This document shows positions 9,408-11,479 of a stretch of 64,000 nt of DNA, in pieces; within the stretch, counting starts at the first letter, position 1, and each line of letters opens with the position of its first letter. The position numbers and the translations under genes are program-made. This DNA is from a virus. A model generated the notes under the pieces. That model was not told the DNA's origin and made no database searches. It saw nothing but the letters and a program-made list of their open reading frames with translations. The DNA is taken from the IMG/VR virus record IMGVR_UViG_3300013233_000151, positions 7,962-71,961 of that record. One strand, written 5' to 3'.

Positions 9408-9836
9408 ATGACCATGAGCGGACCCCAACACGTACTGCCCCCGGCGAGCACGACCAAGGTGGACCTGCGATCGCAGGCCGCCGGGTTCTTCGCGCAACGT
9501 CGTCGAGGCGCGAACGTCCATGAGGCGGCTCCGCCCCCGAAGGCCCGCAAGGCCCCACAGGGCCTCTACGACGACCCTGAGCCGGTCATCATCGCTGAGG
9601 CTTCCCAGAAGGCCCCTGAGCCCACCCAGCTCCCCGAGGCGTCAGAGCAGCGATACACGCTCGCGCAGCTCGTGGAGAAGATTCAGCAGCGTAGGGGGGC
9701 GCGTCAGGCGATCGTGGCGTCGGGAGACCCGGACGGCCCGGACGACACAGGTTGGGATCCAGGAGACCTCAAGATGCCCAAGCGGGGCGCGACGCTCGCG
9801 GCTGGGGTCCTCGCTTACCAGCGGAGGCAGCGGTGA
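9408..9836 (+). CDS. Small putative prohead core/internal protein
   Basis: ORF after TATACT at 9399; VHEA, IAEA, LPEA sites; C-terminal GATLAAGVL resembles GHSLAAATL of the previous protein; start uncertain. Confidence 0.55.
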   Translation: MTMSGPQHVLPPASTTKVDLRSQAAGFFAQRRRGANVHEAAPPPKARKAPQGLYDDPEPVIIAEASQKAPEPTQLPEASEQRYTLAQLVEKIQQRRGARQAIVASGDPDGPDDTGWDPGDLKMPKRGATLAAGVLAYQRRQR

Positions 9837-11479
9837 GGCTCGTCGAGTACCTGTTCGGGGACCCCGGAGGACCGCCGCAGCCCGACTACGGCTACAGCAC
9901 GATGGCCGTGGACGGTGAAGGGCTGAACGGTCTGGAGACGCGCACCGAGCACCCGAGCGAGTACGGGTACGGCACGCCCGGCGTCGCGCACATGGATGGA
10001 CGCCCGATCCCTCACCTCGCGCGTCCGTACGACCAAGGTACGGCGATGCGTTACCGCGCCATGCTCGGCTTCCACGAGTCGATCGACGAAGCGGCGACGT
10101 GGAAGCGTGAGAGAGCGGGGCGGTACATATCCTCAGACGGTTGGATAGTGGAACAGTTTCAGGGGACGCTGCATCCGCGTTGGGGGGTTTGGCCTCCAGG
10201 TAGTGATACAGCGATAGACGAGCACGTTCTGTATGGGCGCACATTGCGAGAGGCGAAAGCAGCGGCGGACCGTGAGTCCAATGATGAGTCGATCGACGAG
10301 GTACGGATAGCCACCGACAAATGGCGCATCAACTACGGCCAAGGTCAGGTATCGCGTACGTTCAAGACGCGCAAGGATGTGAAGCGTGCATTTGGTCAGT
10401 TAGCGCAGCATCGGGCGGGGCGGAAGGGCGCGTTCATCGAGTGGTTTGACTACGCAACTGCTGACCAGGGAGACGGCGATTGGATCCCGCTGCGTGAGTC
10501 GATCGACGAGGTGCTCAAGAAGGGCGAGAACGTCCAGAGCGCCGGTGACAACAAGGCGATTGCTCGACTGGAGAAGGGCGCGTACCCCGCGAGAGCCGAG
10601 GACGGCATGGGCTTCTGCTTTCAGTGGGCGGACGGACGCGGCATCTGCGCGTTTAGGTTGAAGGCCGATGCGCTGCGCTGGGCTAAAGAGCAGCCGCGCG
10701 ACATCGTGAAGTTCTGGTACGGCGAGCCCGTGCACTCGAACGGCAAGTTCCGCATTCGGGTCGTGGACCACTACAGCAAAGAAGAGAGCTTGGACGAGAC
10801 GTGGGCCTCGGACATCAAGAAGCTCAAGATGGCGAAGGACGATGAAGCGATCCCGACCATGTGGAAGCTCGAAGCGCGCTTGCGTGCGTCGGGACACTTG
10901 CATGATGGGCTCAGCCTCACTTTCTTCTGCCCCGTCTACTTCGCCGGTCAGATGATCGTCGAGGCGTTGCTAGATAAGACGGACGAGAACGGCGAACTGC
11001 TTGTCTTCTCGTTGCCCTCCATCACAGACCCGGAGCGCATTCAGATCGGACTTGCGCAGATGCTCAGCCTCGGCATCAAGGACCCGGAGCGTCATCTCAA
11101 GCGGATCAAAAAGGGCAAGGACAAGGGCAAGCTGGCGTTGCGCTGCTACTCGATGCTTCCAGGTATCGAGGGCGTGGGGTCGGCCATCAACTACGCGCAC
11201 ATCGGACAAGAGGCCGTTCAGCTCGGCGCGTTCATGCTCGTGCCGGACGAGTGGGTAAACGAGGGCGATCCCTACAACAAGAGCTATCGCTTCCCGGGTG
11301 AGGTCGGCTACAGCCCGTACTGGCGAATCCCTCCGTTCAACGAGATGCGGAAGATCCGTCCGAAGCTCGCGGCTGACTTTCTCAAGGGCGGCACCGTGAG
11401 GAGACCGGGAACTGTCAAGAACGAGTCGATAACGAAGTTCAGCGAGTTGCTGAACGAGCGATCCGGCAGTCTTTCGTGA
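9833..11479 (+). CDS. Second modular putative internal-head polyprotein
   Basis: GTG start overlapping the upstream TGA, GGAGG RBS; modules delimited by HESIDEA, DESIDEV, RESIDEV, EESLDET, KNES. Confidence 0.7.
   Translation: MRLVEYLFGDPGGPPQPDYGYSTMAVDGEGLNGLETRTEHPSEYGYGTPGVAHMDGRPIPHLARPYDQGTAMRYRAMLGFHESIDEAATWKRERAGRYISSDGWIVEQFQGTLHPRWGVWPPGSDTAIDEHVLYGRTLREAKAAADRESNDESIDEVRIATDKWRINYGQGQVSRTFKTRKDVKRAFGQLAQHRAGRKGAFIEWFDYATADQGDGDWIPLRESIDEVLKKGENVQSAGDNKAIARLEKGAYPARAEDGMGFCFQWADGRGICAFRLKADALRWAKEQPRDIVKFWYGEPVHSNGKFRIRVVDHYSKEESLDETWASDIKKLKMAKDDEAIPTMWKLEARLRASGHLHDGLSLTFFCPVYFAGQMIVEALLDKTDENGELLVFSLPSITDPERIQIGLAQMLSLGIKDPERHLKRIKKGKDKGKLALRCYSMLPGIEGVGSAINYAHIGQEAVQLGAFMLVPDEWVNEGDPYNKSYRFPGEVGYSPYWRIPPFNEMRKIRPKLAADFLKGGTVRRPGTVKNESITKFSELLNERSGSLS
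10076..10509 (+). repeat. Three 14-bp direct repeats GAGTCGATCGACGA (10076, 10286, 10496) at exact 210-bp spacing
   Basis: Seen directly; each encodes ESIDE and contains the palindrome GTCGATCGAC; the intervening sequences are unrelated. Confidence 0.9.

Follow-up and report, generated by a model that had tools for sequence, protein, structure and literature searches.

Introduction

Several described systems resemble the locus considered here. The internal proteins of phage T4 are unrelated cargo proteins that share a common cleaved targeting leader ending at a Glu site and vary strongly between related phages, and Ip1-3 act as injected inhibitors of the host GmrSD nucleases (excerpts of PMC9026906, PMC3012670 and PMC12373910). 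T4-type proteases cut head proteins, and themselves, after a Glu that stands behind a short motif, and they remove the short leaders by which internal proteins are targeted to the prohead; in phiKZ, 201phi2-1 and SPN3US, many internal head proteins likewise have one or, often, several cleavage sites, each behind the Glu of a short motif (excerpts of PMC9026906 and PMC5694885). Polyvalent proteins combine many disparate domains, from 2 to 15 or more, in a single polypeptide of a phage or plasmid, are mosaic, and are predicted to be packaged and injected as counter-defence factors; they are described as being released by embedded peptidase domains, which many but not all of them have, and their authors liken them to the polyproteins of RNA viruses (Iyer et al. 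2017, PMC5512222, in excerpt). The subject of this paper is PP3, a polyprotein gene at positions 9833-11479 of a 64-kb stretch of DNA (the window, comprising bases 7962-71961 of the 71,961-bp virus record IMGVR_UViG_3300013233_000151, here G000, for which CheckV estimates a completeness of 54%). PP3, from an uncultured T4-like phage, is probably a polyprotein of cargo domains, cut by the prohead protease and made up of fast-changing cassettes whose joints lie at the protease sites.

The likeness to the T4 internal proteins (IPI-III and Alt) is one of design, and consists of a gp21-type protease, a gp23-type capsid protein, a conserved N-terminal leader that may likewise serve for targeting, and variable cargo. 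Unlike in T4, the cargo is fused in one open reading frame (ORF), with five units in PP3 and about 15-27 in two larger polyproteins of the same record, PP1 and PP2; one uniform linker, the protease site, recurs between the units, there is a conserved C-terminal tail, and the leader is 86 residues long. With the polyvalent proteins PP3 shares the row of units (five) and the mosaic composition (13 architectures in 16 family members), and one of its units, C, also occurs in large phage proteins without linkers. It differs from them in that no embedded peptidase was found, and in that its linkers match a trans-acting head protease, are uniform and delimit every module. The cleaved head proteins of phiKZ, 201phi2-1 and SPN3US are, as far as those excerpts describe them, products of separate genes with long propeptides and a motif of the form A/S/G-x-E, whereas PP3 is a cassette array with the motif [LIV]-D-E. 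Finally, like an integron array, PP3 lines up unrelated units between short repeats, and its content differs between close relatives; unlike in integrons, no integrase and no attC-type sites were found, and the units are in-frame protein domains and not genes. A full-text literature search, which did not extend to supplements, returned no description of head-protease-delimited cassette polyproteins in tailed phages.

The PP3 Gene and Its Modules

PP3 most likely starts at the GTG at 9833, where its start overlaps the TGA of the ORF upstream. Its parts are given below, with the AlphaFold confidence (pLDDT) where it characterises a part and with the GC content of third codon positions (GC3) of unit B.

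9833-11479, + strand: PP3 polyprotein, 548 residues, consisting of leader, units A-D and tail; the exact protein is on record (P0003)
9833-10090, + strand: leader, residues 1-86, predicted to be disordered (pLDDT 37-52), ending in linker 1
10076-10090, + strand: linker 1, ESIDE (GAGTCGATCGACGAA), presumed to be cut after Glu86
10091-10300, + strand: unit A, residues 87-156 including linker 2, a small domain of beta-sheet and helix (pLDDT 73-86)
10286-10300, + strand: linker 2, ESIDE (GAGTCGATCGACGAG)
10301-10510, + strand: unit B, residues 157-226 including linker 3, an orphan module (GC3 0.70)
10496-10510, + strand: linker 3, ESIDE (GAGTCGATCGACGAG), within which DNA homology to relatives starts
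10511-10798, + strand: unit C, residues 227-322, a widespread small domain (pLDDT 87-98)
10784-10798, + strand: linker 4, ESLDE (GAGAGCTTGGACGAG)
10799-11419, + strand: unit D, residues 323-529, absent from the relatives L004 and L005 and a stand-alone gene elsewhere
11420-11476, + strand: linker-like NESIT, then the conserved tail beginning KFSELLNER

An earlier note on this stretch, made from the sequence alone, had described three identical 14-bp linkers around two unrelated units of 70 codons, the first of them less GC-biased than its surroundings, and this description holds. The sequence GAGTCGATCGACGA occurs exactly at 10076, 10286 and 10496 on the + strand, 210 bp apart, with no other copy in the window, and all three copies read ESIDE in the PP3 frame, followed by ESLDE at 10784; the related linkers that the note had seen in the giant ORF encoding PP2 are also present (GAGTCGCTGGATGAG at 524, GAGTCGCTCGATGAA at 1244 and GAGTCGCTCGATGAG at 2723). 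With up to two mismatches allowed, the repeat is matched 15 times; 100 shuffles averaged 2.24 matches and never reached 15. No pair of modules across the three polyproteins was matched by BLASTP at E<0.01, and the halves of unit A have GC3 values of 0.59 and 0.65, compared with 0.85 in both the leader and unit C and 0.81-0.83 in unit D. The equal 210-bp spacing, to which the note had drawn attention, says little in itself, since many modules of these polyproteins are 67-71 codons long. An assembly artefact was considered as a source of the repeats and rejected, since repeats of 14 bp are not long enough to produce one and the design recurs in independent contigs.

The AlphaFold model of PP3, which was built on a 38-row alignment and has a mean pLDDT of 66, contains confident domains in A (about residues 91-150), C (231-317) and D (340-520); the four linkers all fall in stretches of low confidence, as does NESIT ahead of the tail. 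Of the 15 other members of the family, 13 have a match to the leader. It closes with ESIDE and is a candidate head-targeting propeptide.

Linkers as Probable Sites of the Prohead Protease

The cleavage motif of the T4 protease has the form L/I-x-E. A site pattern [LIVTM]-D-E was counted in each ORF, and the expected number was obtained from composition-preserving shuffles of each protein. Besides PP3, in which six sites stand against 0.7 expected, five proteins are concerned.

G000:C1:2004-7964, upstream of the window: PP1, the third polyprotein, about 1986 residues; 14 sites, 2.2 expected
17-7528, + strand: PP2, the giant polyprotein, 2503 residues; 27 sites, 3.1 expected
7602-9314, + strand: charged protein of 570 residues with an internal duplicated block and with homologs in L004 and L005; 4 sites, 1.4 expected
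21643-23244, + strand: T4-type prohead serine protease (Pfam Peptidase_S77, PF03420, 1e-14; phrog_207, 2.4e-34); 4 sites, 1.4 expected
23288-24790, + strand: Gp23-type major capsid protein (MCP; Pfam Gp23, 2.8e-46); 3 sites, 0.5 expected

The three polyproteins are thus enriched six- to ninefold, and the 34 other ORFs, when pooled, have 15 sites against 14.4 expected, that is, no enrichment. The propeptide of the MCP (23288-23527) ends in SLDE/TTRSALVGG, where the slash marks the presumed cut, at Glu80 counted from the ATG at 23288 and just before the match to the Gp23 model; both this site, with S, T or R in its first position, and a second one, ATDE/, are conserved in 3/3 phages. Because the motif is enriched in the polyproteins, ends the MCP propeptide and is unenriched in the 34 other ORFs, the linkers are best read as head-protease sites, a reading that is well supported but indirect. 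The presumed enzyme is the S77 protease, whose family is that of the T4 gp21 prohead protease and which, like the Gp23 capsid protein, is encoded about 10 kb downstream of PP3; Pfam scans of PP1, PP2 and PP3 found no peptidase family within the polyproteins themselves. Altogether there are 47 candidate cut sites in the three polyproteins, or 51 when the charged 570-residue protein is counted.

Turnover of Cassettes Among Relatives

A word-indexed homolog search with PP3 gave six proteins, and HMMER, run exhaustively against 1.84 billion representatives, gave 50 at E<=0.001, the record of the query itself included. When 17 reference modules were mapped onto the 16 family members that share the leader (Lead) or unit C, 13 different module orders emerged.

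Window: Lead-A-B-C-D
P0004: Lead-X1-X2-C-X3-D
P0005: Lead-Y1-C-D
P0006: Lead-D-E1
P0007: Lead-K-C-Z2
P0009: Lead-W-C
P0014: Lead-C-K
P0020: Lead-S-C-Z2-U
P0022: Lead-Q-X1-X1-C-Z2
P0024: Lead-X1-C-Z2
P0029: Lead-Q
P0015: V-Q-C
P0017: Y1-C in the mapping, with a leader visible in the locus comparison
P0011, P0018 and P0019: Lead-C

Units A and B occur in the window alone among these 16. The two X1 copies that stand in tandem in P0022 are identical at 61 of 76 residues and each ends in a linker, and module K precedes unit C in P0007 and follows it in P0014. When PP3 is compared with five relatives by BLASTP, the ungapped blocks have their starts or ends at residues 86-91, 220-222 and 317-323, which is 0-5 residues from the linkers.

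Stand-alone homologs of the modules, which the earlier note had proposed to search for, were found for unit A in the form of six proteins of 66-79 residues with neither leader nor linker. Unit C is found alone (102-126 residues) or within phage proteins of 1305-3957 residues, in which the site motif is at background (0-1.8 per 1000 residues), and unit D is found alone (186-223 residues) or fused to other domains. For unit B, none of the 50 HMMER matches had its best stretch inside the unit, the match to P0039 running from query residue 197 into unit C. One of the stand-alone unit D genes (223 residues) lies on L003, a low-GC metagenome contig, where it and a neighbouring ORF occupy 2382-3053 and 3230-3736; the neighbour has what by eye looks like a KxDGxN-type ligase motif, and would be RNA-ligase-like.

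An alignment of unit C found two relatives among viral contigs, L004 (a 37-kb record) and L005 (a complete 156-kb record), and none among genome contigs. PP3 searched as a single protein had no relative among viral contigs; a further alignment, A2, had no match there and found L002 and L003 among metagenome contigs. L004 and L005 have the gene order of the window, namely giant polyprotein, charged protein, small ORF, PP3 homolog and ParB-methylase, and identity to the window is 93% (L004) and 88% (L005) for the MCP and 82% and 69%, respectively, for the ParB-methylase. Their PP3 homologs are nonetheless built differently from that of the window, as Lead-W-C-tail in L004 (314 residues) and Lead-Y1-C-tail in L005 (217 residues). 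Homology by blastn over unit C covers 10500-10802 in the comparison with L004 and starts at 10505 in that with L005; it therefore starts inside linker 3 and, against L004, ends just past linker 4. The conserved tail directly follows unit C in L005 (DESITTFSELL) and follows unit D in the window (NESITKFSELL).

The giant polyproteins behave in a similar way. For many modules of PP2, L004 or L005 has an intact counterpart whose ends coincide with sites in both sequences. Others are absent, and one of these has exact borders.

5582-5785, + strand: 204-bp cassette of PP2 between VDE/ and VHE/, absent from L004 to the codon, with the borders GACGAA and CACGAG at the DNA level

Modules also change place. 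PP2 module 415-542 sits at 1821-1914 in L005, the zinc-ribbon module 1378-1433 is placed there before the homolog of module 1008-1117, and one PP1 module of the window is found in the PP2 equivalent of L005. On these comparative data, the cassette behaviour of PP3 is real. The L005 polyprotein has zinc-ribbon modules at residues 37-77 and 676-720, the first of which is flanked on both sides by ESVDE.

Linker DNA and the Role of Recombination

The central proposal of the earlier note was that the cleavage-site sequence may double as a recombination joint. What stands of it is the gain, loss, duplication and relocation of modules, in frame and with borders at the linkers. The linker is to be read in the first place as a protease site; its DNA may in addition guide recombination, or selection may simply retain those events that linkers bound. 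All four ESIDE sites of the record, the fourth being in PP1, share their first 14 nt, and all three ESVDE sites are GAGTCCGTGGACGAG, despite TCC being a minor Ser codon (0.16-0.18); codon-pair context was considered as the cause of TCC before Val and rejected, as it does not explain it. The five ESLDE and three ESTDE sites of this genome vary in their DNA. With codon frequencies taken from 41 ORFs, three ESID stretches would agree in their codons with a probability of 0.004. In a simulation of codon choice for all repeated linker peptides, 10 of 27 pairs were identical over 12 nt where 0.91 were expected, a number reached in none of 20,000 runs (P<5e-5), and over 15 nt 6 of the 27 were identical (P=0.00025). 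Since simulated codon choice falls short of the observed identical pairs, linker identity is not fully explained by preferred codons. Thus, on the two matters by which the earlier note let its idea stand or fall, the module sets of relatives do differ, with boundaries at linkers, and linker identity does exceed codon expectation.

These data can be taken to mean that microhomology of 6-15 nt between linkers, together with general recombination machinery, drives the gain, loss and exchange of cassettes, and that identical linkers are favoured for raising its rate. Apart from the excess identity, such an explanation can draw on the identical 14-15-mers that flank two variable cassettes, the two identical ESVDE 15-mers that flank PP1 module 1765-1859, the linker-bounded X1-X1 duplication of P0022, the short borders of the 204-bp indel, and the presence of a RecA-family gene (PF00154, 5.7e-45; G002:C1:130932-131717) in the complete 156-kb relative, none being found in the 72-kb record, which does not extend to the corresponding part of the genome. 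P0004, moreover, has ESLDE four times where the window has ESIDE three times, orthologous joints included, which at the peptide level would fit homogenisation within a gene. On the other hand, there is no identity excess in L004 (0/3 pairs) or L005 (2/11, P=0.14), the ESLDE and ESTDE copies vary, 14 bp is short for RecA-type recombination, and selection acting on random events would give the same pattern at the protein level. On balance we regard this explanation as rather unlikely, if the strongest of the alternatives. Orthologous linkers differ in DNA between the genomes of the window, L004 and L005, and the identical copies flank exactly units A and B, the cassettes that are unique to the window and low in GC3 (0.59-0.70, against about 0.8 elsewhere). 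Because of this, and because the relatives lack the excess, the identical 14-mers are read as footprints of recent linker copying or recombination and not as a maintained recombination site.

At the opposite end, it could be argued that protein constraint is all there is, such that the 14-mers are alike through selection for ESIDE combined with preferred codons and selection alone places the joints at linkers. The codons used (GAG, 0.77; TCG, 0.36; ATC, 0.74; GAC, 0.66) are indeed each the commonest of their kind, identity stops at the five codons, and the two relatives are without an excess. This is difficult to reconcile with the low chance of three ESID stretches sharing their codons, with the fourth and equally identical ESIDE copy in PP1, with the rare TCC common to the three ESVDE copies, or with the outcome of the global simulation, and we consider the explanation improbable. 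We give no better prospects to the possibility that PP3 is never processed and remains, like many polyvalent proteins, a single chain of several domains, held together here by flexible acidic linkers. It profits from the fact that cleavage itself is deduced indirectly and that unit C sits in proteins of 1305-3957 residues with the motif at background level, but it leaves unaccounted for the confinement of the enrichment to the polyproteins and to known protease substrates (the MCP and the protease itself), the use of the same motif at the end of the MCP propeptide, and a P1 Glu that fits the protease family.

The integron analogy of the earlier note, taken as a mechanism, would make the palindromic linker the site of a dedicated recombinase encoded elsewhere. 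The sequence GTCGATCGAC is a perfect 10-bp palindrome and its four copies in the record are all linkers, but the palindrome is there because the codons GAG-TCG-ATC-GAC produce it. The 51 linkers comprise many different DNA sequences, most of them non-palindromic, whose common part is the codons forced by D-E, and they do not have the character of attC-type structured sites, being 15 nt long, different from one another and palindromic (over 10 bp) in the ESIDE version alone. Phage_integrase (PF00589), in a search that covered neither serine recombinases nor transposases, had no match in G000 or in G002, the complete 156-kb relative, and matched in 14/14 control genomes. The statement of the note that no recombinase is visible in the window holds for the two families searched, RecA and Phage_integrase, neither of which had a match in the incomplete 72-kb record. 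The analogy does not survive as a mechanism, and an integron-like system is very unlikely; in a looser sense the linkers may act as recombination joints. Least credible of all is the origin of units A and B as diverged copies of one 210-bp tandem repeat, as their equal length of 70 codons might suggest: it was rejected, there being no BLASTP match between modules (A against B gave no similarity at E<0.01), while their predicted secondary structures differ and unit A matches a family of 66-79-residue proteins, as unit B does not.

A Model for PP3

We return to PP3 as a protease-cut cargo polyprotein. The conserved, disordered 86-residue leader and the conserved C-terminal tail would frame a row of independent small domains. 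Inside the prohead, the S77 protease would most likely cut the sites of the form [L/I/V]-D-E after Glu, releasing separate small proteins that would remain in the head and probably pass into the host together with the DNA. That the products are packaged and injected we infer by analogy with the T4 internal proteins. The row of cassettes appears to change fast, such that relatives carry other cassettes, in other numbers and orders, with the joints at protease sites. Only events bounded by linkers would survive, because selection demands joints that are in frame and cleavable. Units A and B are then the presumed youngest cassettes, and the identical 14-mers would stem from recent duplication or recombination of linkers, to which short-homology recombination between linker copies may contribute.

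A bolder version, which we offer tentatively and think rather unlikely to be right, holds that the codons of the protease site double as DNA microhomology and permit the in-frame exchange of domains within and between polyproteins and between co-infecting phages. Injected counter-defence proteins would in that case have a cassette system of their own, working at the level of domains and able to do without a dedicated recombinase. Repoila and colleagues are said to have proposed in 1994 that internal protein genes are exchanged via their conserved leader.

A number of observations weigh against the proposed role of PP3. Its cleavage, as much as the packaging and injection of its products, is something we infer. 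The leader of 86 residues is far above the T4 targeting sequences of 10-20 residues given in an excerpt of PMC5694885. No function can be assigned to the modules: PP3 has no family in Pfam or PHROGs, its sole match being a weak one to UBA_5 below the cut-off; the whole-PP3 model had no Foldseek match in the PDB or BFVD at E<=0.001; in VIA-align that model matched through the long helix in unit B alone, with Z up to 4.3; and the model of unit D (mean pLDDT 63) reached a best Z of 2.2 in a fold search. Not all indels are bounded by linkers: when PP2 is compared with L004 from module 880 on, we count about 6 modules as whole, 5-6 as absent and 5 as partial, and some of the last may have their borders at sites outside the pattern, such as VHE. 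Finally, the identity excess of the linkers, which has no counterpart in the two relatives, comes from two peptide groups in one genome. The ESM Atlas gave unnamed clusters alone, with scores up to 0.84, and a cluster look-up was likewise without names.

Genome Setting

The long ORFs of the window are all on the + strand. Cultured phages are distant from this one, with capsid protein identities of about 30% or less (e.g., Bacillus SP-15 and Listeria LIS04), and curated phage genomes had no match by megablast of window positions 1-25000 or by tblastn of PP3. The listed GTG start of the capsid gene (23183) is probably wrong, as both relatives align from the ATG at 23288 (MLLSNQG and MILSNQG). 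A PDB sequence search with the capsid protein aligned the C-terminal part alone, so that the cleavage site was not placed on T4 gp23.

PP1 is built like PP2 and PP3 and contains, according to Pfam, a P-loop module of the AAA_33/Zeta_toxin type at residues 230-375, and one of its modules spans all 98 positions of phrog_9437. A ParB-like motif was seen in PP1 by eye, and Pfam gave no ParB there at E<0.01. An ORF just 5' of PP1 (G000:C1:898-1632) has Cys/His motifs that, by eye, are HNH-endonuclease-like. The charged 570-residue protein between PP2 and PP3 looks scaffold- or core-like from its sequence. The two copies of its duplicated block each contain xIDE, a Lys-rich run, DDMDMA and KKKKKKKAGKDSDGDYDESP.GEMGEG. 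Downstream of PP3, a paralogous pair of genes (11927-13177 and 15921-17165) encodes a ParB N-terminal domain fused to an N6/N4 DNA methylase (phrog_498), and is kept in L004 and L005.

Significance

If this account of PP3 is correct, the clade spends about 15 kb on three polyproteins of approximately 2.0, 2.5 and 0.55 thousand residues, and a few genes would yield dozens of small proteins whose set turns over between phages with capsid proteins that are 88-93% identical. The T4 internal proteins and the polyvalent proteins would be merged in one design, in which a targeting leader and a uniform protease linker are combined with any cargo. The modules, with their borders defined, would then make up a list of candidate injected effectors, and the linkers would supply nature's own rule for packing foreign proteins into phage heads. 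Family members of PP3 would, in addition, offer a test case for the in-frame shuffling of domains by viruses.

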